Below are positions 10,071 to 45,906 of a stretch of DNA of 64,000 nucleotides, in pieces. Source of the stretch: a virus. Its lineage: Duplodnaviria > Heunggongvirae > Uroviricota > Caudoviricetes. The stretch lies in IMG/VR virus record IMGVR_UViG_3300036768_001066, one strand, 5' to 3'. How positions within the stretch are numbered: position 1 is the stretch's first letter; each line of letters opens with the position of its first letter. The notes beneath the pieces are model-generated. The model had not been told where the DNA came from. It saw only the letters and a program-made list of their open reading frames with translations, and ran no database searches. The position numbers and the translations under genes are program-made.

Positions 10071-10207
10071 CTATCAAAGATAGCAACTAATATAATTATG
10101 ATGTGCATCACCAGGAAGAATATTCCTACCAATGACAGCACCGATGCTGTGGTGCTCGTCTTCGCGCCGTTCTTGGCAAAGTTCTGGATCTTCTCTCTCT
10201 TTATCAT
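10067..10207 (-). CDS. unlisted micro-ORF, 46-aa single-TM peptide
   Basis: ATG at 10207..10205 translates to MIKREKIQNFAKNGAKTSTTASVLSLVGIFFLVMHIIIILVAIFDR then TGA. It is coupled to the genes on both sides by ATGA overlaps (10204-10207 and 10067-10070). Confidence 0.35.
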   Translation of the reverse strand: MIKREKIQNFAKNGAKTSTTASVLSLVGIFFLVMHIIIILVAIFDR

Positions 10208-13942: not shown

Positions 13943-13943
13943 T

Positions 13944-14441: not shown

Positions 14442-14574
14442 TTTGATACCAGGATGTCCATTTACGTTTTGTATTAGTTGTGGTTCTCTGCGAACTTCAC
14501 TTTATTCTCGAGCGACATGTTGTCCCATCCTTCCGGTTTCGTTGTTTGTTCCTCCTGTGTCTTGAGCGACTTCA

Positions 14575-15478: not shown

Positions 15479-15662
15479 CGTAAATGAATTCGACGGAGAT
15501 GCCAGGCACATTCCAGTTGCGCATTGATAGCGCGTCCTCGATACGCTTGCGCATGTCGTTGATGCGCTCAGTCAAGCAGTCTCCCTTGAACTCATAATGA
15601 AGCTTGTTGCCGTTTAGGCTACTGAGAGTAGCATCTTTGTCTTCCAGTTTAAAAAATCTCAT
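15456..15662 (-). CDS. hypothetical protein (68 aa)
   Basis: ORF whose 3' end overlaps the start of the disrupted downstream gene. Plausible composition, no motif recognised. Confidence 0.4.
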   Translation of the reverse strand: MRFFKLEDKDATLSSLNGNKLHYEFKGDCLTERINDMRKRIEDALSMRNWNVPGISVEFIYDVDIDKK

Positions 15663-15849
15663 GGTTCGTGCAATTTTATTCCGTTAACGTTTGTCTCTCC
15701 GGCGATAGCTTCTCAAAATGCTGGAACCTGTATTTTCCGGTTGTAGTGGTCTCTGGCACTTGTTGATGGTGGCAAGGGCCACCATCGAAATCGTCCGCAC
15801 CCCTGTAGACATACAGCAGACGAAAATCTTTGGCGTACTCCATCATATC

Positions 15850-16980
15850 CTACTTCTTTTTGACGATGTGAGACAACGCGTTTTTCTCATGCAAATTTGC
15901 AATCAACTCGATGTAGGTACCATACTCCGCGATCTCTTCTGCGCTGTAACCTTCGGTTTCACCGATGCTCTTGAAGTTATTTTGCCAATATTTTATAGAG
16001 TATTTCATGCAGCCGATTTGAATCTCATCTGAGCCCCAATACGACACGTGATGTCTTGATCCGTTGAAGCTGAGAGAGCGCACGATAACGCATTCCTCGA
16101 TGCTCGCGCCGTCGCCGATGATCGTGCCGTCGCCGATGATCGCGTACCGGCTGATTTTCGCGTCCCATCCGATGCTCGCGCCGTCGCCGATGATCGCGCC
16201 GTCGCCGATGCTCGCGCACCGGCCGATTTTCGCGCCTTCGCCGATTTTCGCGCCCCGGCCGATGTTCGCGCGGGGGCCGATGCTCGCGCCGTCGCCGATG
16301 ATCGCGCCGTCGCCGATGCTCGCGCGGGGGGCGATGATCGCGCCTTCGCCGATGATCGCGCGGGGGCCGATGTTCGCGCGGGGGGCGATGCTCGCGCCGT
16401 CGCCGATGCTCGCGCCCCGGCCGATGCTCGCGCCCCGGCCGATGTTCGCGCCTTCGCCGATGTTCGTGCGGGGGCCGATGCTCGCGTCCCATCCGATGTT
16501 CGCGCCGTCGCCGATGCTCGCGCCTTCGCCGATGTTCGTGCGGGGGCCGATGATCGCGCCGTCGCCGATGCTCGCGCGTGGGCCGATTTTCGCGCGTGGG
16601 GCGATGCTCGCGCCTTCGCCGATGATCGCGCCGTCGCCGATGATCGCGCCGTCGCCGATGTTCGTGCCCCGGCCGATGCTCGCGCCCCGGCCGATGCTCG
16701 CGCCTTCGCCGATGTTCGTGCGGGGGCCGATGCTCGCGTCCCATCCGATGCTCGCGCCTTCGCCGATGTTCGTGCGGGGGCCGATGCTCGCGCCTTCGCC
16801 GATGCTCGCGCCGTCGCCGATGCTCGCGCCCCGGCCGATGATCGCGCCGTCGCCGATGCTCACGCGCTGGCCGATGCTAATGCCACGCTTTTTGAACTCA
16901 GCGGAGATGTCGCTGAGTTTATCGTACTCGAATGTTTCCCACCGTGACTTTTCCAGTGTAAAAAGTTTTACCGATTTCAT
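15850..16980 (-). CDS. hexapeptide-repeat (left-handed beta-helix) protein, ~44 consecutive repeats of x-x-[SNIT]-I-G-x
   Basis: Repeats of the form GASIGD / GASIGP / RTNIGE / GASIGW / DASIGP fill ~270 aa, between a short N-terminal region (MKSVKLFTLEKSRWETFEYDKL...) and an ~80-aa non-repeat C-terminal domain. The start is set at the internal ATG 16980 because the longer ORF would overlap the upstream gene. The repeat DNA is visibly GC-richer than the flanks and has strict 18-bp periodicity. Confidence 0.7.
   Translation of the reverse strand: MKSVKLFTLEKSRWETFEYDKLSDISAEFKKRGISIGQRVSIGDGAIIGRGASIGDGASIGEGASIGPRTNIGEGASIGWDASIGPRTNIGEGASIGRGASIGRGTNIGDGAIIGDGAIIGEGASIAPRAKIGPRASIGDGAIIGPRTNIGEGASIGDGANIGWDASIGPRTNIGEGANIGRGASIGRGASIGDGASIAPRANIGPRAIIGEGAIIAPRASIGDGAIIGDGASIGPRANIGRGAKIGEGAKIGRCASIGDGAIIGDGASIGWDAKISRYAIIGDGTIIGDGASIEECVIVRSLSFNGSRHHVSYWGSDEIQIGCMKYSIKYWQNNFKSIGETEGYSAEEIAEYGTYIELIANLHEKNALSHIVKKK
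16064..16900. repeat. 18-bp periodic coding repeat array (GC-rich) underlying the hexapeptide-repeat gene
   Basis: Iterations of cgccgatgctcgcgcc[n]. The spurious long ORFs in other frames (16025-16744 minus, 16064-17140 plus) come from this periodicity. Confidence 0.7.
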
Positions 16981-17063
16981 CCTTATTGGTTTTATTGTAC
17001 AAATATACAATGAATATCTGAACGGGCGCTCAGGCCTGTTCAACTGGTCCCAAGTAACAACAT

Positions 17064-17702
17064 TCAGGGACGGACAGCTACGATTTTGCAACCGTTCTGA
17101 CGTGCAATCTCCAAGATTGGGTCGATGTTGTTCGAACTGATTTGGTTTGTAACGGCCACAACAGAACCATCCTTCAATTTGATGAACTGGTCCGCCTGGC
17201 AGAAGTAACGCTGCTTACCGCTCGCGTTCATCTTGCGGGCCGTGCTTGCCTCGGTGAACACACCGTAGTTGCGCACCAACTCAGAAGGGAAAATTTCAAG
17301 CAACTTCTTGAAACTGCATCCCTGTTTCTCAGCGATGAATTTCACAACGGCCAAAACTAATTTGCCCTTGCGAAATTCCTGTCCGTTGAATTGGTACTTG
17401 GAGAAATCGCGTCCGAAGTTCTTACCTTCCGACTTGTCGGTCTTGGCAGTTTTCTCAACCTCGGCTGCTTTTGCGGCTTTTGCGGCTTTTGCCTTTTCAA
17501 CAGAGGGCATAACTACCGAGAACAACTTCACACTCTTAGCCCCCTTTTGGAAAGTGTCAATTTGTTTACCAAGCTCACCGATAACGGCAAACACTTCGGA
17601 ACGTTTGATACCAGTTGCTTTCTCAATGGCCTTTGCATCGCTCTTCGGGTTCTTAGTTAAGAATGCTGTGACTTTAGCTTTGTTGTCTGTTGTTGTTTTC
17701 AT
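17064..17702 (-). CDS. lysine/alanine-rich putative DNA-binding protein, paralog A (shares a C-terminal ~100-aa domain with 23357-24109)
   Basis: N-terminal region then histone-H1-like AKAAKAAKAAEVEKTAKTDK. C-terminal domain YQFNGQEFRKGKLVLAVVKFIAEK...RYFCQADQFIKLKDGSVVAVTNQISSNNIDPILEIARQNGCKIV aligns with FKFNGIEYGKGPLVHAILTAHVEA...RYFLKESQIIKLADCSIAVCNQFTSDNIQAFLGAARKLGYSI of the paralog. Confidence 0.55.
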   Translation of the reverse strand: MKTTTDNKAKVTAFLTKNPKSDAKAIEKATGIKRSEVFAVIGELGKQIDTFQKGAKSVKLFSVVMPSVEKAKAAKAAKAAEVEKTAKTDKSEGKNFGRDFSKYQFNGQEFRKGKLVLAVVKFIAEKQGCSFKKLLEIFPSELVRNYGVFTEASTARKMNASGKQRYFCQADQFIKLKDGSVVAVTNQISSNNIDPILEIARQNGCKIVAVRP

Positions 17703-17786
17703 GGTCTTGTATTGATTATGGAGTAAAGTTAAGAGGTTTTTCCTATTCCGTAAAAATATTTCGGAAAATACTTACTAACAATTTCC

Positions 17787-17887
17787 GTAACTTATTGATT
17801 ATCAGCAAGATAGAGTATAAATGGAAAAGTCCTGGAAAACTTAATTTCCAGGACTTTTCCATAATGTATTGATAATCAATAAGTTAC
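17787..17887. repeat. nested inverted repeats in a 380-bp non-coding gap
   Basis: Outer 18-bp perfect IR: GTAACTTATTGATTATCA (17787-17804) and TGATAATCAATAAGTTAC (17870-17887). Inner 16-bp perfect hairpin: GGAAAAGTCCTGGAAA (17823-17838) and TTTCCAGGACTTTTCC (17845-17860). TATAAATG box at 17816-17823. Confidence 0.5.
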
Positions 17888-17935
17888 AAGTCACTCACCC
17901 TGAAGCATCTGCCGTGTGGTCACCTTTTGTTATCT

Positions 17936-18056
17936 CCTACGGTGACGGCGTACGCCGAGGTAGGAATCCACAGGTGCAAGTTCAAGGTCGGCGACCGTGA
18001 AGCCCAAGCCAAGACATTCCACAACAACAGGAACCTCGGCGTAGAGCCGCCTACGG
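17936..18056. other. GC-rich structured non-coding element (candidate small RNA or cis-regulatory structure)
   Basis: Local base composition is much GC-richer than the flanks. 12-bp palindrome CGGCGTACGCCG (17946-17957). 11-bp long-range complement TACGCCGAGGT (17951-17961) pairs with ACCTCGGCGTA (18033-18043). Repeated CCTACGG boxes. No ORF with a plausible start. Confidence 0.35.
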
Positions 18057-18080
18057 AAGGACTTGTCCACACAGATTTGT

Positions 18081-18908
18081 TTAAAGATTTTTGAATGCAC
18101 GCCGCACGTCTCTCGTGAACTTGCCGAAGTCTGTGTCGTCGAGTATCTCTGGGAATCGCCACGCGAACCCGCGGTCCATCATGTCCTCCTGGAACTTGAT
18201 GTATGCACCAGGCTCTGGGGTACCGTCCTCCCTGAAGTCATATCCCATGAACCAGAGATTGTTTGCTATGGAAGACGTAGAGTGGTAATCGTGGGATACC
18301 ACCACTATGGTGTTTAAGTCATCAAGATTTGCGACCTCCGTGATGACCTCGCATACCTCTTCAGTCATATTCGGGTCAAGTCCTGAGAACGGCTCATCCA
18401 TCAACAAGAAATTTTCCGAACACAACAACTGCTGAATAATCGCGATACGTTGCTTCTGTCCACCGGATAGTTGCGCCGGATAGAACTTATGCTTGTCGGC
18501 CAATTTGAATCGCTCGAGGTAGAACTCAATCTTATCCTTCTGCTCCGCCTTACTTAAGCGAGTGTTCTTTGCGGCCGCAAGCTGCAAGTTTCCGAGAATC
18601 GAACGATGTTGAAACAACGGATACGCTTGTGCGACTACGCCAACCATGCCAGGATAAACCGGCTTGCCATTTACGAGCACCTCGCCGGTTGTGGGTTTAC
18701 GTAATCCGGAAAGTATGTTGAACAGCATCGTCTTCCCACGACCGGATGGTCCGAGAAATCCGACGATCTGTCCGGTAGTCTTGACAGGACGTACAACGTC
18801 CTTAATCTCGAGATTTATATCTCGCAGGATTAGCTTATCGTCGAGCTTAAGCGAAACATCTGTGACCTTAAGGATAGTCTTTTCGAGTATTTGATATTCT
18901 TGCTTCAT
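18081..18908 (-). CDS. ABC transporter ATP-binding protein
   Basis: Walker A GPSGRGKT. Q-loop. ABC signature LSGGQKQR. Walker B LLMDEPFSGLD. H-loop VSHD. Stop/start overlap with the permease gene. Confidence 0.85.
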   Translation of the reverse strand: MKQEYQILEKTILKVTDVSLKLDDKLILRDINLEIKDVVRPVKTTGQIVGFLGPSGRGKTMLFNILSGLRKPTTGEVLVNGKPVYPGMVGVVAQAYPLFQHRSILGNLQLAAAKNTRLSKAEQKDKIEFYLERFKLADKHKFYPAQLSGGQKQRIAIIQQLLCSENFLLMDEPFSGLDPNMTEEVCEVITEVANLDDLNTIVVVSHDYHSTSSIANNLWFMGYDFREDGTPEPGAYIKFQEDMMDRGFAWRFPEILDDTDFGKFTRDVRRAFKNL

Positions 18909-19702
18909 TTTCTTTCAAGTGTTATGTATGCGTAAGGACAAAGAGTCTTGCGCACGAAGCCAAGCATCCAGTCAAAGAACATACCGAGTATCAAAATCAT
19001 TATCTGGATAGCGTAAACCGCATCGAGGTGGAATACTTTGTTCTGGTCGTTGAGTATCACACCGATACCGCCTTCCGACCGGCATAGGTTCTCTACCATT
19101 GCAAGCATCATCCACGCAATCGCAAAGTTCTGTCGTATCACATCAAGGACCTGGTCCGCCTTTCCGAGTATGATGACTTCCCACACCGTCTCCCACTCAC
19201 TCTTCTTGAGTGTTCTCGCGTAGTCAAGCTCCGCCTTGGTAACACTCGATATGATTGCCGAGATGGACGTAACGTGAAATACAGTTATGCCGAACACGAG
19301 CAGCGCCACCTTCTGTGACGTGGTGTCCTTGCATATAAGGGCAAATAGGAAAGTTAAGCCTATAGTTGTCATGAATCTCGCCTTACCAACGAACGCCGTG
19401 AACGGCCGGAAGAAAGGCATGACTGCCAGGTATGCTATCACCAATGATATGATGGTGGCCCAGAACATTCCCTTAGCGCATAGCCAGATACTCGACAGGA
19501 GCTCTGCGAGAAATCCGTTAGCGAATAAACCCTTGGTAGCTTCCCATATATTTGGTAAACTCGGGAGGAGTTGTGTGTGACTGAACGTCCAGTATATTAG
19601 GACGGTCGCCACCCATATTGTCAACACCAGGAGCTGCTTGTTTTGTTTGAGCTGCTTGTTTGGCGTGAATATGTCTTTGATGAATGCTGTAACTTTATTC
19701 AT
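18905..19702 (-). CDS. ABC transporter permease (binding-protein-dependent inner-membrane component)
   Basis: Six hydrophobic segments. EAA-like loop ELDYARTLKKSEWETVWEVIILGKA. The start is set at ATG 19702 (MNKVTAFIKD...) because the longer frame would run through the upstream terminator. Confidence 0.75.
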   Translation of the reverse strand: MNKVTAFIKDIFTPNKQLKQNKQLLVLTIWVATVLIYWTFSHTQLLPSLPNIWEATKGLFANGFLAELLSSIWLCAKGMFWATIISLVIAYLAVMPFFRPFTAFVGKARFMTTIGLTFLFALICKDTTSQKVALLVFGITVFHVTSISAIISSVTKAELDYARTLKKSEWETVWEVIILGKADQVLDVIRQNFAIAWMMLAMVENLCRSEGGIGVILNDQNKVFHLDAVYAIQIMILILGMFFDWMLGFVRKTLCPYAYITLERK

Positions 19703-19713
19703 GACGAATGGAT

Positions 19714-19741
19714 AAAAAAGAGCCGGTAAAATACCGGCTCT
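19714..19741 (-). terminator. rho-independent terminator (minus strand)
   Basis: Hairpin AGCCGGT-aaaat-ACCGGCT. On the minus-strand RNA it is followed by UUUUUU (top A6 at 19714-19719). It sits right after the stop of the OmpA-like gene and before the permease start. Confidence 0.55.
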
Positions 19742-19746
19742 CAATG

Positions 19747-20145
19747 TTAACGGCCAAGTTTGATTTCAACACGGCGGTTCTTCTTACGACCCGCATCAGT
19801 GTTGTTGTCCCCGATAGGAGTGGTCTCGCCAAAGCCCTGAGCAGACACCTTGTTACGGAATATCTTCTGGTCTTTGTTGATTAACCACTGACGAACCGCT
19901 TCAGCACGTTGCTGTGATAACTGCATGTTCATTCCATCGTCACCCTGATTATCCGTGTGACCCTCGATGGACACGAGGAGGTTCTCTGCGATAATCAAGT
20001 CGTTTGCCAACTGATTAAGAGTAGGGATAGATGCAGGTAAGATGGTGGCGGAGCCGGTCTGGAACTCGATAACGTACGACTTGTTAGACACAAGCTGCGA
20101 CATCTTCTGGTTCTCCGAGAACGTAGGCATAGAAGCCACTGTCAT
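19747..20145 (-). CDS. OmpA/MotB-family peptidoglycan-associated domain protein
   Basis: C-terminal OmpA-like signature: IEGHTDNQGDDGMNMQLSQQRAEAVRQWL...GFGETTPIGDNNTDAGRKKNRRVEIKL. Start ambiguous; the longer frame overlaps the upstream gene. Confidence 0.55.
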   Translation of the reverse strand: MTVASMPTFSENQKMSQLVSNKSYVIEFQTGSATILPASIPTLNQLANDLIIAENLLVSIEGHTDNQGDDGMNMQLSQQRAEAVRQWLINKDQKIFRNKVSAQGFGETTPIGDNNTDAGRKKNRRVEIKLGR

Positions 20146-21491
20146 GTTGGCGTTGTTTTTATTGTTTGTATACACTGACTGCACGTACTCAAGTCCACCA
20201 CCTCCTCGTAAGGGAAGTACGTAGGCATTACATCCGGGTATGCTTTAACACATAGGTCACCAAAAGTAACATACACGGCTTTGTACTTATCGGTGCTTCC
20301 GTTTAAGCCGTAATACTCCGCAAGGTCCGCAAGGTTGAACACGCGGGATCCACCGATTTCGTTTATGTTGCCCTGCGCATCTGTAAATTGCTTACCTACG
20401 AAGTACTGCTGCCAGTCATCAGCCGTCAAGCCAGCGTCTTGGTATATCGCATCCTGCACACGGCAAGCAAATGCCAATGCCGAAGTGTGGGACTTAACCT
20501 GGTCGCCACCTAAACAACCAGCAAGGATGAATTTCTCAACGCTCGCTTTGTTGTCCTGTAACCACTTCTTACAAGCCAACCACGTGTTAGGCATCTGCGC
20601 ACCATTATCCTTAGTCGAGAATACTGTTACACCACCACGACCCTCGAAACAGATTTTGTCTCCCGGAGTCCACGTAACGCAACCGTCCACTGTGACAGTT
20701 GTATCTCGGCCTGTCCTTTTACCATTGATAACGATAGGACGCTTCTCAGTGGTCTTAGACACGTAGATTTGGGCTGCTTTAATGTAGTCATCGATACCCA
20801 TCCAGTTGATGGCCGTAGGGTCGTACGTGGTAGGGTCGTTGTTGACGTCAATACCGTTAAGGTCGGCATACTTCATTAGAATATTCCAGTCGCCGTCACG
20901 CAACACACCAACCCAAAGGGAACCGCGCAATTTCTGCGGGTCTTGACGGAAGGAACCATCCTTATAGATGGCCTTGCCCTCACCGAATGAAGCACCGAAC
21001 GCTGTGAACGCCTGAATAATGTAATCGTCACCGAGTTGTTTTTTGATTTGGTCGTTAAGACCTGCGAGATAAGACGGAACCCCGTCTCCCATCCAAGCAA
21101 TCATGTGATAGCCCTTTGACGAGTTCTTGTTTCCGGAAGCGTAGTCCTGCGCGAAGGCGAACAATTGGTTGCCCTGCTCGGTACAGTTGTTCTGGCAGAT
21201 AAGACGCAATTTAACGCCTTGTTCCTCCATGATAGATCCCTTCATTGTTGAAGGACCACCGTTTGCGTAAGCCACACCGGCCTGCGCGTTCCAACCCATG
21301 ATACCCGCTCTCCATTCTGGAACTGCAAGGGTTGTCATTTGTGTAGTGTCGGGGAGCGCACGCTTTGGCGCGTTCGCGTTCTTGTCATACTGCAGTGGCG
21401 GAAGATCCGCTACCGTAATTTGTCCCGACTGTTTTGTTGGTTTTTGGAACCAGCCGAAGAATTTTGTATCCGACTCCAAGGGTTCCACCAA
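20142..21491 (-). CDS. putative periplasmic substrate-binding protein of the adjacent ABC transporter (assignment tentative)
   Basis: 449-aa ORF upstream of and co-oriented with the permease and ATPase. Mixed alpha/beta composition. No transmembrane segments. The listed start is a TTG. No clear signal peptide was found from either the TTG or internal ATGs, so its role is inferred from position only. Confidence 0.35.
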   Translation of the reverse strand: MVEPLESDTKFFGWFQKPTKQSGQITVADLPPLQYDKNANAPKRALPDTTQMTTLAVPEWRAGIMGWNAQAGVAYANGGPSTMKGSIMEEQGVKLRLICQNNCTEQGNQLFAFAQDYASGNKNSSKGYHMIAWMGDGVPSYLAGLNDQIKKQLGDDYIIQAFTAFGASFGEGKAIYKDGSFRQDPQKLRGSLWVGVLRDGDWNILMKYADLNGIDVNNDPTTYDPTAINWMGIDDYIKAAQIYVSKTTEKRPIVINGKRTGRDTTVTVDGCVTWTPGDKICFEGRGGVTVFSTKDNGAQMPNTWLACKKWLQDNKASVEKFILAGCLGGDQVKSHTSALAFACRVQDAIYQDAGLTADDWQQYFVGKQFTDAQGNINEIGGSRVFNLADLAEYYGLNGSTDKYKAVYVTFGDLCVKAYPDVMPTYFPYEEVVDLSTCSQCIQTIKTTPT

Positions 21492-21593: not shown

Positions 21594-21609
21594 CAAAGTT
21601 ACAAAGTTA
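21594..21609 (-). promoter_or_regulatory. tandem TAACTTTG boxes (match to the Bacteroidota sigma-A -7 element TAnnTTTG)
   Basis: The minus strand reads GTAACTTTGTAACTTTGTGG. A TTCG box lies ~20 nt upstream (minus sense). It sits ~30-100 nt upstream of the start candidates for gene 20142-21491. Confidence 0.35.
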
Positions 21610-24526: not shown

Positions 24527-25522
24527 TTACATCGAGTATTTTGAGACGCACAGTCTTTGTCTGACGTGGTCCGCTATATGTTTAACTTTGAATCCGCAAT
24601 CCTTGTACACGACGAACCCCGCGATGGGCACATCCGTCTCAACGCACTTGCATATCTCGGCCATGACCTCGCGCGCCCTCGGGTGCGAGTCCGTCACCGT
24701 AATAGTCTTCACCTTGCCGGAATCGGCCATCTTCGCTACCGAGTTTCCCGGGAGCACTCCATGCGTCGCGACAACATGCACCTCCTTGGCACCTGCCTCG
24801 AGGTACTTCTCGGCCGCACCAATGACGGAACCGCCGGTGCGAATCATGTCGTCGTATATGATGACGATTCGATCCTTCACGTCAGCGTTAACGCTGGTCA
24901 CCTCGGTCTCGCTGCCGCTGATGCGGCGCTTGGTAATAATCGCGCAATTAACTTTCATGTCCTTGGCGAGAGACTCGATCCACTTGGCGCGTCCGGCATC
25001 CGTAGAGCCCAGAACGAAATCGTCTCCGGCAATCTCACGGCAAGCCTCAATAACGAGGTCCTTCGCGTACATGTGAATAGGCTGAACGTTGCCCTCGAGG
25101 TAGTGCGGGAGTCCTTCAGTATGCAGGTCGAGAAACACTATGCGATTTGGTCTTGCTCCGCTCGGAATGGTCGACAACAGCCTCGCTCTCGTCTTGGCCT
25201 TCACGATCTCCCCGGGCTTCAGCGCGCGCTCCATAGTGGAGTACCCGAAGTACGGGATGAACAGCGTGAGCGACTTCGCACCGTGCTTGACGGCAGAGCA
25301 TCCGAGGTCGTACAATTCGAGGGTCTCCTCAGCAGTATATGTGCCTCCGATTATGATGACATCCTTGTCCTCAATATCGGACAGGTTAAACTTGTGGTAG
25401 ATCTCGCCGTCGGCGAAAACTTTTCGTTCCAATCCGCCAGACATAATCGGCGCCTCAACTCTGCGGCCTACTATTTCGCCGAGGAGGTATGCGTAATTGG
25501 TTGTTGAGAAAGCTACGTACAT
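24527..25522 (-). CDS. prs: ribose-phosphate pyrophosphokinase (PRPP synthetase) homolog
   Basis: N-terminal LxxxIxxxLG...FxDGE block (YLLGEIVGRRVEAP...KVFADGEIY). Divalent-cation/ribose-5-P region VFLDLH. PRPP-binding loop IIYDDMIRTGGS. Overall ~320 aa with two Prs-type domains. Confidence 0.85.
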   Translation of the reverse strand: MYVAFSTTNYAYLLGEIVGRRVEAPIMSGGLERKVFADGEIYHKFNLSDIEDKDVIIIGGTYTAEETLELYDLGCSAVKHGAKSLTLFIPYFGYSTMERALKPGEIVKAKTRARLLSTIPSGARPNRIVFLDLHTEGLPHYLEGNVQPIHMYAKDLVIEACREIAGDDFVLGSTDAGRAKWIESLAKDMKVNCAIITKRRISGSETEVTSVNADVKDRIVIIYDDMIRTGGSVIGAAEKYLEAGAKEVHVVATHGVLPGNSVAKMADSGKVKTITVTDSHPRAREVMAEICKCVETDVPIAGFVVYKDCGFKVKHIADHVRQRLCVSKYSM

Positions 25523-26224: not shown

Positions 26225-26476
26225 TTACAGCATTACGTTCATGCTGGACAACGGGCCGGTCTCGTTTCTCACAGAAAATTCAACCCCCGAATACATTGTC
26301 TCTACTATAATCGGTCGGCACGCGATGCTCCACGAAAAGAAGTCGAGGCACAAAGGCCTGGACGGCTCTGACGTAAGCAGTGTACGAGGATGGTAAACCG
26401 CTTCCAGAACACCGAGCGTACTGTGATACCACAGCTCAAGGTTGTGCCCATTTATTTCGGCTTTGATTTTATTCAT
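26225..26476 (-). CDS. hypothetical protein (83 aa)
   Basis: ORF in the same frame as 25868-26161. It is separated from it by two stops (TAA at 26225, TAG at 26216). Confidence 0.3.
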   Translation of the reverse strand: MNKIKAEINGHNLELWYHSTLGVLEAVYHPRTLLTSEPSRPLCLDFFSWSIACRPIIVETMYSGVEFSVRNETGPLSSMNVML

Positions 26477-26494
26477 AGAGTAAAGTTACGAATA

Positions 26495-26523
26495 AAAATA
26501 CAAATAAAAAAGGGTCGCTGGAA
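26495..26523 (-). terminator. rho-independent terminator (minus strand)
   Basis: Hairpin GGGTCGC-tggaatt-GCGACCC (26502-26522). On the minus-strand RNA it is followed by a U7 tract (top A-run 26495-26501). Located 34 nt downstream of the stop of gene 26557-26739. Confidence 0.55.
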
Positions 26524-26556
26524 TTGCGACCCTCTTATTTCCGTACGAATAACTGC

Positions 26557-26739
26557 TTAAGAACCCTTCTTGGCATTCTTAGCTGCCTGGATGTCGGCGC
26601 GGCTCTCTTTGCAGAGAACGGCTATCTCCTGCAGGATTCCGCGCGCACGAGTTCCTGCAGAAGCGTTTCCACTTTCAAACTTAGCCACTTCCGGCTCTAA
26701 CGAAGCTACAAGCTCCTTGATCTTTTCGAACTTTTCCAT
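26557..26739 (-). CDS. small basic histone-H1-like / nucleoid-associated protein (60 aa)
   Basis: MEKFEKIKELVASLEPEVAKFESGNASAGTRARGILQEIAVLCKESRADIQAAKNAKKGS. The xGNxxAGTRAR core and Lys-rich tail match the small histone-H1-like proteins common in Bacteroidota. It has its own terminator. Confidence 0.5.
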   Translation of the reverse strand: MEKFEKIKELVASLEPEVAKFESGNASAGTRARGILQEIAVLCKESRADIQAAKNAKKGS

Positions 26740-26772
26740 TGTTTTTGTTTTTTGTTGGTTTTACTTACTTTA

Positions 26773-27660
26773 CTATATAATCGCCATAATTCGCGGCGCC
26801 CTGCGGGCCGCTACGTCGAATTCCTTAACTATCACAGACATCAACCTGCCGCCCGATCCGCACCCACATCCGCAATCGGCGAGCACCACCTGCTTGGGCA
26901 GTCCGCCGTGAACGTAGTTATGTATCCTTGGGAAGTTAATGCCCTGGCTCAACCTGTGGAAGTGCCCGTGAACGGACATCATCTTGTTGTTCGGGGTTAT
27001 GAAGCAGCCGTCGCCCTTCGGGTTGCTGTAGTCGGACTGCCTCCCCCATATAAGGCTGTTGTTCGTGTACTCATTTTTGCTCTGCGGCGCATGACTGAAG
27101 AACAGCGAGTCCGTCTCATGAAACAGCTTGGCGTGCTCTTTCAAGAACGCGTACTCCTCGCTATCGAGTATTTTTCCCCAGTAGACATTAACGTCCTCAC
27201 CGGTCGGTATTCCCATGTTCTCGTTTCTGAGCGGCTCTATATCCGTGGGCCTCGCGCCATACAGCTGGACGCAGGTCTTCCACCCGTGGTTTATCGACCA
27301 TAGGTGCGAATGATACGCCCACTTGCCGTTCTCGAACTGTGTCATCGACATGTCGCCTGTGCCAACGAGAAATGCGTCGTGATTGCCGAACAGGCATATA
27401 GCTCCGTTGTCCACGTACTCCTTAACCTTCATTATGACGGCTCGAGGCTCGGGCCCGCGGTCGATGAAGTCGCCGAGAAACACATACTGGGGGTTGTCCT
27501 TGGACACCTTGTTGTACTTGCGCCATGCCTCGATGGACGCGAGCACCCGCTCCAGCTCGCTTATCTCGCCGTGCACGTCCGCTATACATGCGTAGAACTT
27601 CCCCATCTCCCGCATGGTCTCCATCATCTTTAGCTGTTCTCTGAATTCTCTGTCTTCCAT
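26773..27660 (-). CDS. Ser/Thr protein phosphatase-family metallophosphoesterase (lambda-PPase/ApaH-like)
   Basis: Motifs ADVHG, FLGDFIDRGPE, FGNHD, HGH. C-terminal Cys/Gly cluster CGCGCGSGG. Confidence 0.75.
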   Translation of the reverse strand: MEDREFREQLKMMETMREMGKFYACIADVHGEISELERVLASIEAWRKYNKVSKDNPQYVFLGDFIDRGPEPRAVIMKVKEYVDNGAICLFGNHDAFLVGTGDMSMTQFENGKWAYHSHLWSINHGWKTCVQLYGARPTDIEPLRNENMGIPTGEDVNVYWGKILDSEEYAFLKEHAKLFHETDSLFFSHAPQSKNEYTNNSLIWGRQSDYSNPKGDGCFITPNNKMMSVHGHFHRLSQGINFPRIHNYVHGGLPKQVVLADCGCGCGSGGRLMSVIVKEFDVAARRAPRIMAII

Positions 27661-31550: not shown

Positions 31551-31778
31551 GGTTATCTTTTTGTTTGTCAATCGGCCTAATATAGGCAAATTTTCGGGTC
31601 CGATCAGCGACGGCTGGAGATTCTTCCACCGCGTAAGTACTTAACCGGTTACAAACCCTGGGGTTTTTGGGATAATTTTTTTATGCGCGTTTCGAACTTT
31701 TGTTTCGGCCGAAGCGCCGTTTCGTCATTTTTTTTTAGGGACCCGCGACAAATGGGCGATCCGCCGGTAATAGATGGT

Positions 31779-33584
31779 ATGGTAGAATTCGAAAGGGTCA
31801 AGCTGCCCAAATACTCAATAATAATACCGACGTACAACCACTTCGAGGACTGCTTCAAGCCGTGCCTCGATTCGGTTATTACGTCGACCAAGGACCTGCT
31901 CGTATCCGGCGACGCCGAGGTGATAGTCGTGGCGAACGGCTGCACCGACGGAACCGTCGATTACGCGAGGGAGGCGCCGCATTACGCGGACGGGTATCGC
32001 ATAAGGATAGTCGAGATCGACGAGCCGCTCGGATACACCGTTGCAGTTAACATAGGGTTGGGGCTCGCCAGGGGCGAGTTCGTGGTTCTAATGAACAACG
32101 ATGCGCAGGTTCTCGAGTGGGGCAAGGACGGCAAGTGGCTCGAGATGCTCCGCGAGCCGTTTGACCTCGACCCGACCGTCGGCATCACCGGCCCAAAGAA
32201 GATAATGTCCAAGGAGACGGGCAGGCCATTCGTGATATTCTTCCTCGCCATGATAAGGCGCCGGACGTTCTATGAGATCGGATACCTTGACGAGACGTTC
32301 AACCCCGGTGGCGGAGAGGACATCGATTTCTGCATGAGGCTCGAGAAGAACGGGTACAGGTGCGTGTGTGTGCCGGACGACGGTCCGACGGCCGGCGATT
32401 ACGTCACGTCGTACCCGATCTACCACGTCGGCGAGGCGACGGTTCACTCAGAGGTGGCCGGTTGGGAGGAGAAGTTCGAGAGGCGCATGAAGCTGTTGGA
32501 GCATCGCACCAAGAATGCTTATTACGCTACGCACGCGGACGTGACCTGCTACATATCTACCAGGGGCAGGTACTTCTCAACGCTGCCGCTCGCCATAATG
32601 TCAGTGATAAACCAGAAGCTGAAGCCAAAGCGTCTGATCATATTCATGGACGACTACAACGAGAAGCCGGTCGACCTGCGCAAGTACAGCGTATACCAGC
32701 ATCTGTTCAAGATGCTCCTCGATGCCGGCATAAATTGGGACGTGGTGTTCGGCGAGGGAAAGGGTCAGGTGCTAAACCACCAGAAGGCCATCGACATGGC
32801 GGGCACCGAGTTTCTATGGAGGCTCGACGACGACAACTCCGCCGAGCCGGATGTCCTCGAGAAACTGATGGCATGCTTCGACGAAGGGGTAGGCGCCGTT
32901 GGGGGCAGCGTCCCGACTCCGGGGCAGAATGTGCCCGGCCCTTGCTCCACAAAAATATCGGAGATATGCTCGTCCAGCAACATACAGTGGTCTGTCGGAA
33001 CTGGCATTATACCGGCAGACCATCTGTACAGCACCTTCGTGTTCAGGAAGGTGGCAGCCGCGCACGGGTACTGTAAGGAGCTGTCTACAGTTGGCCACAG
33101 GGAGGAGACTATATTCACGCACGAGATGAAACGTGCGGGGTGGCAGCTCCTGATAGACCGCTCTGCCGTGACTCATCATTTGAGGGAGACCGTGGGTGGA
33201 ATACGCAGTTTCGACGATTCCAAACTATGGGAGGCCGACGAGGCCGTATTCAGGCGCAAGATGGAGGAGTGGGGGGTGAAGCTGAAGGGACGCAGATATA
33301 TCGTTCTCGATTGCGGGCTCGGAGATCACTGGAGCTTTAAGATGATTCTACCAGAGGTCAAGGCCAAGTACCCGGATGACCGCATAACCATAGCTGCGTG
33401 CTTCCCCCACGTGTTCGACGATTCCGGCGTGGATCTGATGAGCATCGCGGACGCCAAGCAGATGTTCGACGAAAAACGTATTAGCAAGATGAACGTGTAT
33501 CAGTTCGGGGTTGAAGAGAACTGGAACGGTACGTTGCTCGACGCATTCAGGGAGCTTTACGTGAAGGGGAGGGCCTGGTCATGA
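31779..33584 (+). CDS. multi-domain glycosyltransferase (GT2 domain + second GT2-like domain + C-terminal GT9/heptosyltransferase-like region)
   Basis: KYSIIIPTYNH then D-rich NNDAQV and GGGEDIDFCMRL (GT2 DxD/ED motifs). The second half has LIIFMDDYNE ... WRLDDDN. The C-terminal region has LDCGLGDHW. Start set at ATG 31779 (alternative 31752). The ORF-track start 31683 lies inside a poly-T/hairpin leader. Confidence 0.75.
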   Translation: MVEFERVKLPKYSIIIPTYNHFEDCFKPCLDSVITSTKDLLVSGDAEVIVVANGCTDGTVDYAREAPHYADGYRIRIVEIDEPLGYTVAVNIGLGLARGEFVVLMNNDAQVLEWGKDGKWLEMLREPFDLDPTVGITGPKKIMSKETGRPFVIFFLAMIRRRTFYEIGYLDETFNPGGGEDIDFCMRLEKNGYRCVCVPDDGPTAGDYVTSYPIYHVGEATVHSEVAGWEEKFERRMKLLEHRTKNAYYATHADVTCYISTRGRYFSTLPLAIMSVINQKLKPKRLIIFMDDYNEKPVDLRKYSVYQHLFKMLLDAGINWDVVFGEGKGQVLNHQKAIDMAGTEFLWRLDDDNSAEPDVLEKLMACFDEGVGAVGGSVPTPGQNVPGPCSTKISEICSSSNIQWSVGTGIIPADHLYSTFVFRKVAAAHGYCKELSTVGHREETIFTHEMKRAGWQLLIDRSAVTHHLRETVGGIRSFDDSKLWEADEAVFRRKMEEWGVKLKGRRYIVLDCGLGDHWSFKMILPEVKAKYPDDRITIAACFPHVFDDSGVDLMSIADAKQMFDEKRISKMNVYQFGVEENWNGTLLDAFRELYVKGRAWS

Positions 33585-35503
33585 TAAATGATATTGAGAG
33601 CCAGAGATGCGACAAGCCAGATCCGCCGTATTTTGCCGGACGCATTGCAATAGTCATGCCGTTCAAGAATACCAAAGACGCGGATGGCAACAGCCTAATT
33701 CTCAGGTCCGCCGCCGTGGCATTGAACCCCACCGAGATGCGCGGTCCGAACGAGATTATACTTCTCGCCATCGACGACGGAGCCACCGACGGGAGCCGGG
33801 AACTTCTCGAGAGTATCGTGCAAGAGCACACTCGGAGGCTCGTAATCCTTAATGGCAGCGGCCGCGGACCGGCCGCTGCACGAAATGTTGCACTCGAGTA
33901 CATAAGGAGTTTGGACAACACGCCGGAAGCTTTCACTCACGTGGCATTTTGTGATAGCGACGACATGTGGTTCCCATGGCACCTGGCCCGTAGCTTGCAG
34001 GCCATTGATGACGGGTATGATATGGTGTATTCGAACGTCGAGTGCGAGAACGAGAAGGGCGAGCCTTTGCAGATATTCGGCATACCGAATCCGGAGGAGT
34101 TCGATTATGAGTTGCTCAAGCAGGGCAATTATATCTTCATATCAACCGTGGTCATGAAGAGGGAGTGTATAGACGTCGGTCAGTTCTCCGAGGATGCCGT
34201 CCCGATGGAGGACTGGGAGTACTGGTTGCGCGTTGCCGCGAAGTATCGGGTCAAACACGTACACGCAAAGAAGCCGAGCATAATCTACACATGGAAGAGC
34301 ACGGGCTCGTACTATACGGCAGAGGACTCGCATGCCGCTAAATTAAGAATACAACGGAAGATGAATTTACAAGATCCAATGAATGTCGAGGGATGGCTCT
34401 CCAGGGCGGAGGGCGAGTTCCTCGCAAAAAACGCCGAGGGCCGCAGATGTATAGAGATAGGCTCGTACAAGGGCAAGAGCGCTTGTTTTATGGCGCCGAA
34501 GGCGACGAGCATCGTGTGCATAGACACGTTCAAGGCGGACAACGGCGGACAGACTCAGATGCAGTCGCTCACCACCTACGTTGATTTCGCAAGGAACACC
34601 GCGCATCTCAACAACGTCACACCGCTCATTGGTATGTCGCAGAACGTGCACCAGTTGCTGAAGAACGACGAGTTCGACTTCATATTCATAGATAGCATGC
34701 ACGATTACGAGTCGGTCATGAACGATGTAAAGAACTACCTGCCCAAGCTGAAGGACGGCGCCGTGATAATGTTTCACGACTACTTCGAGCGCGACTGGCC
34801 GGGTGTTGTCAGGTGCGTCAACGAGTTATTTGGCGGCCCTGACGAACTCGTCGATACAATAGCGAAGGTGACAGTTACCGCAGAGAGGAGGTTCGACCTC
34901 GCTATCAAGTTCGCTGGGATGACATCCAGCGTTGATACTATCCCGAGCAATGAACCAAAGTTAGAGTTGACTCCTGATGTATCGGATTTCGAGAAGGGCT
35001 CACTCGATGGTAAAGTCATAGTGATAGCCCCATGGGCTGCTAAGTTGCCGGGGATGGAAAACGCCAAGAATTACCAGGACTGGCCGGAGGTGGTTGGCAT
35101 GCTTCGCGCACTCGGCGCTTACACCATACAGGTAGGTGTTGCTGGCGAGAAGTTGGTCGGATGCGACGAAGTCATACTGAACGCGGCGCCCGATAAACTC
35201 CTAAAGATCCTCAACGCATGCGATACGTTCGTGTCGGTGGACTCGTTCTTCCCTCATTTTGCAGCGTACCACAACAAAAAAGGTGTGGTTATTTTTTCGA
35301 AGTCGGACCCAAAAATTTTTGGACATTCCATCCACCTAAACCTCTTAAAATCAAGAGAATATTTGCGCCCGGACCAGTTCAGATGGTGGCGCGATGTTGC
35401 CTTAGATAAATCAGCCTTTGTGACTCCAAATGAGGTAGTTGCGGGTGTTTTGGAAATCTTAAAAGATGCGGAAATATATACAGAGCTGCCCGAAAGAAAG
35501 TGA
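33581..35503 (+). CDS. tri-domain enzyme: GT2 glycosyltransferase, class-I SAM methyltransferase (TylF/MycF-like), GT9-like C-terminal domain
   Basis: N-terminus IAIVMPFKN...LAIDDGATDGS...DSDDMW (GT2). Middle CIEIGSYKGKSA...FDFIFIDSMHDYESV...MFHDY (Methyltransf_24-like). C-terminus VIVIAPWAAK...FVSVDSFFPHFAAY (heptosyltransferase-like). ATGA overlap with the upstream gene. Confidence 0.7.
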   Translation: MINDIESQRCDKPDPPYFAGRIAIVMPFKNTKDADGNSLILRSAAVALNPTEMRGPNEIILLAIDDGATDGSRELLESIVQEHTRRLVILNGSGRGPAAARNVALEYIRSLDNTPEAFTHVAFCDSDDMWFPWHLARSLQAIDDGYDMVYSNVECENEKGEPLQIFGIPNPEEFDYELLKQGNYIFISTVVMKRECIDVGQFSEDAVPMEDWEYWLRVAAKYRVKHVHAKKPSIIYTWKSTGSYYTAEDSHAAKLRIQRKMNLQDPMNVEGWLSRAEGEFLAKNAEGRRCIEIGSYKGKSACFMAPKATSIVCIDTFKADNGGQTQMQSLTTYVDFARNTAHLNNVTPLIGMSQNVHQLLKNDEFDFIFIDSMHDYESVMNDVKNYLPKLKDGAVIMFHDYFERDWPGVVRCVNELFGGPDELVDTIAKVTVTAERRFDLAIKFAGMTSSVDTIPSNEPKLELTPDVSDFEKGSLDGKVIVIAPWAAKLPGMENAKNYQDWPEVVGMLRALGAYTIQVGVAGEKLVGCDEVILNAAPDKLLKILNACDTFVSVDSFFPHFAAYHNKKGVVIFSKSDPKIFGHSIHLNLLKSREYLRPDQFRWWRDVALDKSAFVTPNEVVAGVLEILKDAEIYTELPERK

Positions 35504-35557: not shown

Positions 35558-38101
35558 ATGGAAGTAATCGAAACTAAAACAGAGAAAAAATCCTACAGCT
35601 ACGCTGAGGTGCTCGAGAAGGCAAAAAGCTACTTCGGTGGCGACGAGTTGGCGGCGAGTGTTTGGATTAACAAGTACGCATTGAAGGATTCCGATGGCAA
35701 CATCTACGAGCTGACCCCGGAGGACATGCACCGTAGGATTGCGTCGGAGATCGCCAGGGTCGAGGCCAAGTTCCCGAACCCTGTGAGTGAGGAAGAGTTC
35801 TTTTCTCTACTCGATAGGTTCAGGTACATAATACCTCAAGGCAGCCCGATGGCAGGTATCGGCAACAACCTGCAGAAGATTTCTTTGTCCAACTGTTTCG
35901 TGGTTGGTAACCCAGACGGAATGGGTGATTCTTACGGTGGCATCATGAGGATAGACGAGCGCATTGCACAGCTACAGAAGAGGCGTTGTGGCGTGGGCAC
36001 GGACTTGTCCGACATTAGGCCAGCGGGCACTGCCGTCAATAATGCAGCAATCACGTCCACTGGTATAGTTCCATTCATGCAGCGCTATTCGAACACAACC
36101 CGAGAGGTCGCGCAGGATGGGCGTCGTGGGGCACTTATGTTGTCCGTTTCTATCCGGCACCCGGAGTCCGAGGCTTTCATCGATGCTAAGATGGATAGCA
36201 CGAAGGTCACCGGAGCTAACGTTTCTGTGAAGATCCACGATGATTTCATGGATGCCGTACTTGCGGGCCGGATGTACAAGCAGCAGTGGCCGATATACGG
36301 CGATGGGCGCATTCACAAGGAGATCGACGCCGCTGCATTATGGAAGAAGATCATTCATAATGCGTGGAAGTCTGCGGAGCCGGGCGTTTTGTTCTGGGAT
36401 AAGATCATTAAGGAATCTCCGGCCGATTGCTATTCTGCATTCGGGTTCAGGACCGTATCTACTAACCCGTGTGGTGAGTTGCCATTATGTTCTGGCGATT
36501 CTTGCCGATTACTTGCTTTGAATCTTTATGCGTATGTTCGTAATCCGTTCACTCCGGATGCTTACTTCGATTTTGAGTTGTTCGACAAGCACGTTCGCAT
36601 AGCGCAGAGGATGATGGACAATATTGTCGAGCTTGAGCTCGAGAAGATTGATGATATTATAACCAAAATCAAATCTGATCCAGAGAGCGCAGAGATTAAG
36701 TTCAACGAGCTTTCTATGTGGGAGGAGATTCGTCAGAAGTGCGCTAATGGTCGCAGGACTGGAACTGGTGTTACGGCCGAGGGTGATATGCTTGCAGCGC
36801 TTGGACTTCGTTATGGTACAAAGGAGGCAACTGCATTTGCCGAGTCTGTGCACAAGGCACTCGCCATATCCGCATACAAGAGTTCGGCAATTATGGCGAA
36901 GGAACGCGGCGCGTTTCCTATTTATGATGAGAAGCTCGAGGTCAACAATCCGTTCTTGAACAGGCTCAAGGAAGCAGACCCGGAGTTGCGCGAATTGCTC
37001 GCCAAGTACGGTCGTAGAAATATCGCTCTGTTGACCATAGCTCCTACCGGCACTGTGTCTTTGATGACGCAGACAACGTCAGGTGTAGAGTGCGCGTTCA
37101 TGGCTGCGTACATGCGTCGTAAGAAGATCAACCCTAACGACAAGAGCGCGAGGGTCGATTTCGTTGATGAGGTCGGAGATAGCTGGGAGGAGTATAACGT
37201 GTTCCACCACCACTTCAAAACCTGGATGATTGTCAACGGATACGATCCAGATGCGGTTGCTCACATGTCTACCGAGGAGCTCAATAAAGTAATTGAGAAG
37301 TCACCTTACTACAAGGCCATGGCTAATGATGTTGACTGGGTGGAGAAGGTTAACATGCAGGGTGCGATACAGAAATGGATTGACCACTCAATATCGGTTA
37401 CGGTTAACCTGCCCAATCACGTGACGGAGGAACTCGTAAACGAGGTTTACGTCGCGGCTTGGAAGGCCGGCTGCAAGGGTTGCACCATATACAGGGACGG
37501 GTCACGTTCCGGAGTTCTTGTGGAGAAGAAGGAGAAGGAGGAGGACAAGCCTAAGGCCAAGGACAATAATGCGCCTCGCCGTCCGAAGACTCTCGAGTGC
37601 GACATTCACAGGTTCATGAACAAGGGCGAACAGTGGATAGGTTTTGTTGGGCTGTTTGATGGCAGACCTTATGAAGTGTTCACAGGTAAGGCCGAGCACA
37701 TAAAGGTGCCCGGAAAGATCGATACTGGCCGTATACGCAAAACCAAAACCGACAGTGGATCAAAGTACGACTTCATCTACGTGGACAAGGGTGAGGAAGT
37801 TGTGGTTGAGTGGTTGAACAAGTCTTTCGACCCGCATTACTGGAATTACGCCAAGATGCTGTCAGGAATTCTGAGGCATGGAATGCCCCTGCCTTATGTG
37901 GTAGATCTTATCACTTCATTGAATCTCGATGACGAGGTGATAACCACGTGGAAGGGTGGCATCCAGAGGATGATCAAGAAGTACATCCCGGACGGCACTC
38001 GGGCGACCGATAAGAAGTGCAAGGACTGCGGGTCCGAGTCTGTAATATTCCAGGAGGGGTGTTTGACCTGTACTTCGTGTGGAAGTTCGAAATGTTCGTA
38101 A
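35558..38101 (+). CDS. nrdJ: ribonucleotide reductase, class II (adenosylcobalamin-dependent, NrdJ-type) with C-terminal zinc ribbon
   Basis: Active-site NPCGE(L). IAPTGTVSLM block. 847 aa. C-terminus CKDCGSESVIFQEGCLTCTSCGSSKC (Cys4 ribbon). Confidence 0.85.
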   Translation: MEVIETKTEKKSYSYAEVLEKAKSYFGGDELAASVWINKYALKDSDGNIYELTPEDMHRRIASEIARVEAKFPNPVSEEEFFSLLDRFRYIIPQGSPMAGIGNNLQKISLSNCFVVGNPDGMGDSYGGIMRIDERIAQLQKRRCGVGTDLSDIRPAGTAVNNAAITSTGIVPFMQRYSNTTREVAQDGRRGALMLSVSIRHPESEAFIDAKMDSTKVTGANVSVKIHDDFMDAVLAGRMYKQQWPIYGDGRIHKEIDAAALWKKIIHNAWKSAEPGVLFWDKIIKESPADCYSAFGFRTVSTNPCGELPLCSGDSCRLLALNLYAYVRNPFTPDAYFDFELFDKHVRIAQRMMDNIVELELEKIDDIITKIKSDPESAEIKFNELSMWEEIRQKCANGRRTGTGVTAEGDMLAALGLRYGTKEATAFAESVHKALAISAYKSSAIMAKERGAFPIYDEKLEVNNPFLNRLKEADPELRELLAKYGRRNIALLTIAPTGTVSLMTQTTSGVECAFMAAYMRRKKINPNDKSARVDFVDEVGDSWEEYNVFHHHFKTWMIVNGYDPDAVAHMSTEELNKVIEKSPYYKAMANDVDWVEKVNMQGAIQKWIDHSISVTVNLPNHVTEELVNEVYVAAWKAGCKGCTIYRDGSRSGVLVEKKEKEEDKPKAKDNNAPRRPKTLECDIHRFMNKGEQWIGFVGLFDGRPYEVFTGKAEHIKVPGKIDTGRIRKTKTDSGSKYDFIYVDKGEEVVVEWLNKSFDPHYWNYAKMLSGILRHGMPLPYVVDLITSLNLDDEVITTWKGGIQRMIKKYIPDGTRATDKKCKDCGSESVIFQEGCLTCTSCGSSKCS

Positions 38102-43098: not shown

Positions 43099-43099
43099 A

Positions 43100-44755: not shown

Positions 44756-44756
44756 G

Positions 44757-45892: not shown

Positions 45893-45906
45893 AGTATATT
45901 TATTCT

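Follow-up and report, generated by a model that had tools for sequence, protein, structure and literature searches.

What does a 60-residue protein annotated as histone H1-like do in a phage genome, and does it reveal the host of that phage? Both questions are raised by a gene located on the minus strand at positions 26557-26739 of a 64,000-nucleotide stretch of viral DNA (IMG/VR record IMGVR_UViG_3300036768_001066, class Caudoviricetes), hereafter called the window, whose product belongs to the Hc1 protein family. From the letters of the sequence, the original prediction had proposed a Bacteroidota host on three grounds: this protein, a near absence of Shine-Dalgarno (SD) sequences and the occurrence of TAnnTTTG boxes. 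We find the phylum very probably correct, judging from start-site and protein comparisons, and the start-site signature, the homologs of the class II ribonucleotide reductase NrdJ and the related phages all support it. However, the conclusion rests mainly on evidence beyond the three initial clues, and the reasoning first given for it was weaker than the conclusion itself. The absence of SD motifs and a host-like NrdJ are much stronger host signals than the Hc1 gene or exact TAnnTTTG matches. Judging by protein relationships, the window appears to come from a tailed phage of very large size, with kinship to the “Mahaphage”/Lak group. The explanation that best accounts for the results as a whole, and in which we have moderate confidence, is a Mahaphage/Lak-related very large phage with a Bacteroidota host, in which the Hc1-domain protein would serve as a nucleoid-associated hairpin protein.

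A stand-alone Hc1 domain under purifying selection

The gene product (MEKFEKIKELVASLEPEVAKFESGNASAGTRARGILQEIAVLCKESRADIQAAKNAKKGS, 60 aa) matches the Pfam family PF07432 (Hc1) with an E-value of 1.8e-17 and a score of 63.4 bits, against a cut-off of 23.5. In the protein the match extends over residues 1-55, and in the profile over 56 of the 57 positions (1-56), so the 60-aa histone-H1-like protein first noticed at this locus corresponds to the Hc1 family from end to end. It had been described as small and basic. The protein is indeed small, but “basic” overstates a net charge of +2 and a pI of 8.9. No model matching it was found in PHROGs or NCBIfam. An identical protein is encoded on three further assembled contigs, one of them of 0.2-1 Mb. 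Compared with locus L001, whose protein is identical, the coding sequence differs by 9 synonymous and 0 non-synonymous changes. The ratio of non-synonymous to synonymous substitution rates (dN/dS) was about 0.06 against the relative L087 (72% identical) and about 0.12 against the relative L084 (60% identical). On these sequence comparisons, the Hc1 gene is under strong purifying selection. That the open reading frame (ORF) is a chance frame or a decaying, functionless remnant might be argued from its 60 codons and from the lack of a PHROG or NCBIfam model, but this is effectively refuted by the full-length Pfam match, by the substitution pattern against both L001 and the remoter relatives, and by the conservation of its position and of its terminator.

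AlphaFold2, run with a 67-sequence alignment, predicted a two-helix hairpin (helices 2-22 and 26-59) with a mean predicted local distance difference test score (pLDDT) of 94.9. The PF07432 signature K…GN-x-x-AGTR-x-R…R is complete: the protein has K20, G24, N25, A28, G29, T30, R31, R33 and R47. Two of these residues, R33 and R47, do not vary in either family alignment (75 and 67 sequences), and M1, K20, N25, A28, G29 and R31 are invariant in the 67-sequence one. The invariant residues of the Hc1 family gather around the hairpin turn. A sequence search of the PDB found no solved relative of the protein. Structural resemblances of the model to uL29 and CDK2AP1 were rejected, as these are generic helical hairpins matched by Foldseek at E > 0.7.

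The name “histone H1-like” is borrowed from Chlamydia Hc1 and is misleading here. In Chlamydia Hc1, the conserved N-terminus is reported to mediate dimerization and a C-terminus rich in lysine to bind DNA (PMC2848022). When the sequence of C. trachomatis HctA was compared with Pfam, PF07432 covered residues 4-58 only, and the tail (residues 59-125) lay outside the domain. The phage protein therefore corresponds to the dimerization domain without the H1-like tail: it stops 5 residues past the domain (…AKNAKKGS) and has no lysine/alanine-rich C-terminal extension. A direct BLASTP comparison of the phage protein with the same HctA sequence gave no significant alignment, and the kinship with HctA is visible at the level of sequence profiles only. 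The Pfam model Linker_histone did not match at E ≤ 1 and the predicted model is not a winged helix; on these grounds a linker histone identity was rejected. A Chlamydia-type histone-like protein in the functional sense was also rejected, because the DNA-binding tail is absent. The short form is found in cells as well. Except for two ORFs of 80 and 90 aa that were called too long, homologs translated from our scan of cellular genomes have 55-72 residues; their net charges range from -1 to +8 and are mostly +1 to +5. Most of the 195 clusters at 50% identity obtained in an exhaustive search also have the short form.

Gene starts, NrdJ and related phages point to Bacteroidota

To describe gene starts, an SD motif was defined as GGAG, GAGG or AGGA at positions -18 to -4, and 75 genes of the window were called by codon usage. 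Such a motif precedes 6 of them (8%), compared with 11% at random positions. The statement that almost no gene of the window has an upstream SD sequence thus holds, and both leaders quoted in its support (…tttaacc ATG and …gttcgtta ATG) were found. The 20 bases before the start codons contain 33-55% A. At positions -16 to -9, a region that is G-rich in SD-using genomes, G amounts to 8-17%, while G and A each make up about 25% of the whole window. The window and the cellular loci fetched for comparison were then scored identically (Table 1). The SD rate of the window is indistinguishable from that of Bacteroidota loci (Fisher P = 0.79). It differs from the rates of Fibrobacterota (P = 0.04) and Poseidoniales (P = 0.005), and the comparison with Alphaproteobacteria is borderline (P = 0.07).

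Table 1. SD motifs and upstream base composition in the window and in cellular loci; G and A refer to positions -16 to -5
Source	SD motif	Random positions	G	A
Window	9.4%	14%	13.8%	40%
Bacteroidota loci	8.2%	7.1%	15%	40%
Fibrobacterota loci	25%	10%	26%	29%
Alphaproteobacteria loci	23.5%	6.9%	25%	28%
Poseidoniales loci	30%	11.5%	28%	24%

NrdJ is the most informative host marker in the window, and it is the one gene with which the closeness of host-type genes to Bacteroidota was assessed. Among its top 120 homologs, phage relatives come first (94-65% identity). They are followed by homologs from named organisms, all 12 of which are Bacteroidota, including Phocaeicola plebeius, Thermonema, Chitinophagales and Flavobacteriales. 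Full-length identity to these is 62-64%, and several of them come from contigs of 1-2 Mb. A homolog search with NrdJ, which the original prediction had suggested as a check, thus favored the proposed phylum.

The best phage matches of NrdJ are MT835965.1, LR745206.1 (61% identity) and LR756500.1 (53%), whereas the NrdJ proteins of crAss-like Bacteroides phages and of a Leptolyngbya phage (41%) are only about 40% identical. For the DnaB-SbcC-SbcD block, LR756500.1 is the nearest relative (37%), followed by Prevotella Lak phages (30%, E = 6e-48). Al-Shayeb et al. report that replication in Bacteroidetes was predicted for all of their genomes larger than 634 kb, and that these genomes group with Lak phages (PMC7162821); LR745206.1, with 634,780 bp, is placed in this group solely by that figure. 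Assigning huge phages to Bacteroidota is established practice. A megablast comparison of 20 kb of the window with the phage collection gave no nucleotide match.

The NrdJ proteins also differ in their insertions. The NrdJ of the window (847 aa) has no intein, and several close relatives carry intein/LAGLIDADG insertions (1180-1230 aa); the relatives in this comparison were L087 1-109, P0284, P0296 and P0298. The NrdJ match in LR756500.1 (256368-260494) is split over 4.1 kb.

Distribution of Hc1 across cellular and viral genomes

To see how far the Hc1 gene itself indicates a host phylum, its homologs were sought in one genome per prokaryotic species by a pattern-limited scan, and taxa were counted among the 58 best cellular loci listed. 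Bacteroidota account for 25 of these, Rhodothermales for 1, Fibrobacterota for 12 and Rickettsiales or other Alphaproteobacteria for 9. The remainder comprises two Chloroflexota, single Chlamydiota, Melainabacteria and Verrucomicrobiota loci and a few probably mis-binned contigs. One more locus, labeled Alistipes and kept outside the 25 Bacteroidota, carries a Fibrobacter-type Hc1 and is probably mis-binned. About 19 archaeal loci of Poseidoniales rank after these 58, and Parachlamydiaceae are among the carriers. The family, with thousands of sequence clusters, spans bacteria, archaea and phages.

Two observations concern the cellular loci themselves. About 19 metagenome-assembled genomes (MAGs) of Poseidoniales (Marine Group II archaea; within L062-L083) encode 59-aa Hc1-domain proteins, a bacterial-type family in an archaeal order. 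In addition, L034, L036, L038, L042, L060 and L075 are probably mis-binned contigs: MAGs labeled Alistipes, Senegalimassilia, Oscillospiraceae and Methanomethylophilaceae have Hc1 loci nearly identical to those of Fibrobacter, a Bifidobacterium bin has a Bacteroidota-type Hc1, and a Flavobacteriales bin has a Poseidoniales-type Hc1.

Hc1 points weakly to Bacteroidota. In a profile search, all 11 organism-named sequences among the top 120 matches were Bacteroidota or Balneolaceae, and the six cellular sequences nearest by full-length distance were Bacteroidota. Viral copies are widespread as well. Phage-encoded PF07432 has already been published: four moraphages, which are also predicted to infect Bacteroidota, are reported to encode it (PMC12619734). 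The “histone H1” of Synechococcus phage S-SRM01 is an Hc1 homolog with 52% identity, and at least 222 IMG/VR contigs encode Hc1 relatives. Genes flanking the IMG/VR copies have SD motifs in 31% of cases, a significantly higher share than that of the window (P = 0.0003). The hosts of phages with Hc1 are therefore not limited to SD-less ones, and many of the viral contigs that bear the gene probably have other hosts. The IMG/VR loci L090, L093-L096 and L099-L101 encode Hc1 proteins 60-65% identical to residues 11-58 of the window's protein, closer than any cellular homolog, and their flanking genes use SD sites (37%). The distribution suggests that the Hc1 gene has been exchanged between phages of different hosts. 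After the genome and IMG/VR scans, with carriers in many phyla and many viruses, Hc1 was rejected as a phylum marker. The histone-H1-like protein, first described as typical of Bacteroidota, is not specific to that phylum, since Fibrobacter, Rickettsiales, Poseidoniales and the IMG/VR contigs carry it too. A “histone H1” annotation on a 60-residue protein thus implies neither a histone-like function nor a host phylum.

TAnnTTTG boxes

The tandem box reported at 21594-21609 is present as two copies of TAACTTTG on the minus strand (21594-21601 and 21602-21609), within a 297-nt non-coding stretch upstream of a minus-strand gene block that starts at about 21338-21491. Across the whole window, TAnnTTTG is not enriched (39 occurrences against 31.4 +/- 5.5 expected; a count of 39 is reached in 14 of 100 shuffles). 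In non-coding segments upstream of curated genes, it occurs 7 times in the sense and 0 times in the antisense direction, with 1.75 occurrences expected (P about 0.0025). When genes were called automatically and more crudely, the excess shrank to 2-6 occurrences against 0.9-2.1 expected (P 0.015-0.21). No clear -33 TTTG element was found. The boxes are present, as first described, but had no diagnostic value in the controls: Fibrobacter loci, a partly redundant set, show an enrichment of the motif upstream of their genes, and the Bacteroidota positive control failed. TAnnTTTG was accordingly rejected as a marker of phylum, and as a clue it is suggestive only.

The position of some variant boxes deserves mention. 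A TAnnTTT[G/A] box ends exactly 4 nt before the ATG in three genes, at 10075-10082(-), 26481-26498(-) and 61862-61879(+), with the sequences TATCTTTGatagATG, TAACTTTActctATG and TACCTTTGaaccATG. The last two sites share the 18-mer TTTTTATTCGTAMCTTTR, for which 0.19 occurrences are expected by chance. If these boxes are -7 promoters, the transcripts would have little or no leader. Immediately past the Hc1 terminator, at the site of TAACTTTA in the window, an exact TATATTTG is found in L084 and L087, which lends the clue some comparative support.

Could the host belong to another phylum?

An alternative is that the host is not a member of Bacteroidota but of another Hc1-bearing or SD-poor lineage, such as Fibrobacterota, Cyanobacteria (including Melainabacteria) or Chlamydiota. 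Several of the results given above lend it some weight, and by the same token weigh against a Bacteroidota host. Hc1 homologs occur in Fibrobacter, Rickettsiales, Melainabacteria, Parachlamydiaceae and Poseidoniales, and a Synechococcus phage encodes one; the maximal Hc1 identity is 54% for Bacteroidota against 51% for Fibrobacter and Rickettsiales, a small margin. The Leptolyngbya phage NrdJ is as close as that of the crAss-like Bacteroides phages, and an ancestor of the phage clade could have acquired NrdJ long ago. TAnnTTTG is enriched in Fibrobacter loci and, by the same test, not in the Bacteroidota control loci. Against this alternative, Fibrobacterota and Poseidoniales loci are SD-enriched (25-30% against 10-11.5% at random positions) with about 26-28% G upstream, and the window shows no such enrichment. 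Alphaproteobacteria differ in the same direction, at P = 0.07 only. All named cellular NrdJ homologs at 62-64% are Bacteroidota, and the nearest characterized phages are Prevotella Lak phages. We consider a host outside Bacteroidota quite improbable.

A possible mode of action and its rivals

The gene, the fold, the conservation and the host phylum rest on the results described so far; dimerization, nucleic-acid binding and a role in infection are inferred. We propose the following mode of action tentatively, from the predicted model and by analogy. Two hairpins would pair into a four-helix bundle, by analogy with the homologous N-terminal domain of Chlamydia Hc1, for which dimerization is reported. 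Around the GN-x-x-AGTR-x-R turn, the dimer would expose to nucleic acid the basic residues K20, R31, R33 and R47, which are invariant in the family. Acting in this way, the protein would be a small, abundant nucleoid-associated protein that organizes or silences DNA during infection, and the phage gene would be a copy of that of a small protein very common in free-living Bacteroidota. Several points speak against this proposal. In Chlamydia Hc1, DNA binding and condensation have been shown for the C-terminal tail, which is absent here, and the net charge of the phage protein is only +2. Foldseek returned generic helical hairpins only from the PDB, with a best E-value of 0.77, and thus no functional precedent. 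Our literature search found no experimental work on a stand-alone Hc1 domain.

The main rival to nucleic-acid binding is that the phage protein has no such activity of its own and pairs, through its dimerization interface, with the Hc1-domain protein of the host, acting as a mimic or dominant-negative partner. In the course of infection, such pairing would reshape or inactivate a function of the host, either in its nucleoid or in regulation. Of Chlamydia Hc1, only the domain reported as dimerizing is represented here, homologs of 57-60 aa with 44-54% identity are common in the predicted host phylum, and a net charge of +2 suits an interaction module more than a DNA-coating protein. However, the stand-alone proteins of cells share this architecture, are comparable in charge (+2 to +5) and act without a tail, and the invariant basic residues suggest a conserved ligand rather than a protein interface alone. 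We regard this pairing as unlikely.

A related proposal, which we hold to be improbable, is that the stand-alone Hc1 domain is a dimerization module rather than a DNA compactor, and that phages carry it to co-assemble with the very abundant Hc1-domain protein of the host and thereby hijack or poison the latter. If true, this would make the gene a phage-encoded mimic of a nucleoid protein and would provide the first functional handle on an uncharacterized small-protein family of more than 7,000 sequence clusters.

It is very unlikely, in our view, that the protein mainly binds RNA or modulates translation instead of organizing DNA. The structural neighbors of the model include the uL29 helical hairpin, at a level that is not significant, and the title of Pedersen et al. 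1994, as cited in PMC12619734, speaks of an interaction of Hc1 with DNA and RNA and of repressed transcription and translation in vitro. However, the matches in fold are to generic structures (E > 0.7), the protein used to measure RNA binding in Chlamydia was the full-length, tailed one, and the phage gene is placed among genes of DNA metabolism.

Genomic environment of the Hc1 gene

The Hc1 gene sits in a block of replication and nucleotide-metabolism genes, not in a structural block (Table 2). The order NrdJ-GT2-GT2-RNA ligase-AAA ATPase-…-metallophosphatase-Hc1-…-PRPP (phosphoribosyl pyrophosphate) synthetase is kept in relatives whose Hc1 is 60-100% identical, and this conservation makes Hc1 a stable core gene of the phage lineage. 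The metallophosphatase gene is next to Hc1 in L001, L002, L084, L085 and L087, and the two genes are probably co-transcribed. A 33-nt spacer that follows the metallophosphatase stop codon forms the Hc1 leader, and a AAACAAAAACAAA-like, A-rich and G-poor leader is kept in L084 and L087. Hc1 ends a transcription unit and has its own intrinsic terminator, in which the terminator scan placed the hairpin at 26508-26536, followed by a T-run. Its RNA fold has an energy of -22.8 kcal/mol (z = -6.3). L084, L087 and L003 (the LR756500.1 locus) have a hairpin and U-tract at the equivalent site with different stem sequences; the structure is thus conserved and the sequence is not.

Table 2. Features of the window associated with the Hc1 gene and with host assignment
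Feature	Position	Strand	Basis
Coding sequence, 60-aa stand-alone Hc1 N-terminal-domain protein (PF07432)	26557..26739	(-)	Pfam, predicted fold, conservation
A-rich, G-poor, SD-less Hc1 leader (…AAAACCAACAAAAAACAAAAACA-ATG)	26740..26772	(-)	Sequence
Calcineurin-like metallophosphatase gene, immediately upstream of Hc1	26773..27660	(-)	Pfam; synteny
Intrinsic terminator directly after the Hc1 stop codon (11-bp GC-rich stem, 7-nt loop, T-run)	26498..26536	(-)	Terminator scan, RNA fold
TTTTTATTCGTAACTTTA box (variant of the -7 consensus), located after the Hc1 terminator and before the next gene (26225..26476)	26481..26498	(-)	Motif; comparison
PRPP-synthetase-like gene, conserved downstream neighbor in the same block as Hc1	24527..25522	(-)	Pfam; synteny
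Tandem TAACTTTG TAACTTTG, candidate Bacteroidota-type -7 promoter box	21594..21609	(-)	Motif search
NrdJ (class II ribonucleotide reductase)	35558..38101	(+)	Pfam Ribonuc_red_lgC, E = 5e-84

Phage genes of the window include those for a baseplate hub, SbcC/SbcD, a DnaB-type helicase, a T4-type RNA ligase, a tRNA-His guanylyltransferase, NrdJ and a GIY-YIG endonuclease, along with many glycosyltransferase genes. tRNA genes, sought in the window as host clues, were not present. At 61037-63074(+), the tRNA-His guanylyltransferase gene (Thg1-like, PHROG E = 2.5e-88) is followed by a Nudix-HD phosphohydrolase fusion. The GIY-YIG + NUMOD3 homing-endonuclease gene (40381-40887(+)) lies downstream of NrdJ, in a low-GC, gene-poor stretch directly after an ATP-grasp gene.

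A large glycan-modification island occupies 31683-35503(+) and 42448-49997(-). It encodes two long GT2 proteins (one fused to a methyltransferase), a GT10-fucosyltransferase/GT25 fusion, a GT11 fucosyltransferase, a sulfotransferase fused to a peptidoglycan-binding domain, two FkbM methyltransferases, another GT25, a GDSL hydrolase and a GT1-like protein. An envelope-type gene block, unusual for a phage, is found at 12221-21338(-) and encodes a 573-aa TPM-domain protein, a hexapeptide-repeat transferase, an ABC ATPase, a permease, an OmpA-domain protein and a 398-449-aa protein of unknown family. Knowledge of the host phylum aids the reading of this fucosyl/sulfo-glycan island and of the ABC/OmpA/TPM envelope genes, as well as the calling of gene starts without SD sites.

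Comparison with known systems

With the eukaryotic linker histone H1, the phage protein, a predicted two-helix hairpin without a long basic tail, has only the name in common. It shares the conserved N-terminal domain with Hc1 (HctA) of Chlamydia trachomatis. HctA is 125 aa long and ends in a lysine/alanine-rich tail that the phage protein lacks; this tail is reported to be the part that binds and condenses DNA and that resembles eukaryotic H1 (PMC2848022).

At the level of the phage, the window resembles the Mahaphage/Lak group (LR745206.1, LR756500.1 and the Prevotella Lak phages) in its NrdJ and DnaB-SbcC-SbcD proteins. The link is drawn from NrdJ and the replication block, as the terminase and capsid genes lie outside the window. 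Hc1 homologs are present in LR756500.1 and, with a weaker match, in LR745206.1, whereas the Lak phages have no Hc1 match at E ≤ 0.01. The window also differs in GC content (49% against 23.5% for the LR756500.1 locus) and has no similarity to these phages at the nucleotide level. It would add one more very-large-phage lineage to those assigned to Bacteroidota. Like the PF07432 genes of moraphages, S-SRM01 and the IMG/VR contigs, the gene studied here is a small Hc1-domain gene in a large phage genome. Among the 80 IMG/VR relatives listed, none is more than 65% identical, and this over residues 11-58 only, which indicates a different phage lineage.

The stand-alone Hc1-domain proteins of Bacteroidota, named “histone H1” at NCBI, are likewise single-domain proteins of 57-60 aa with the GN-x-x-AGTR-x-R motif. 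They are mildly basic (+2 to +5) and 44-54% identical to the phage protein. The latter differs from them in being encoded in a phage genome, in its loop KF-ESGN, which is without the extra residue of most Bacteroidota copies (KFFEKGN), and in the “LCK” variant of helix 2, which is commoner in Rickettsiales, Melainabacteria and marine viral copies.

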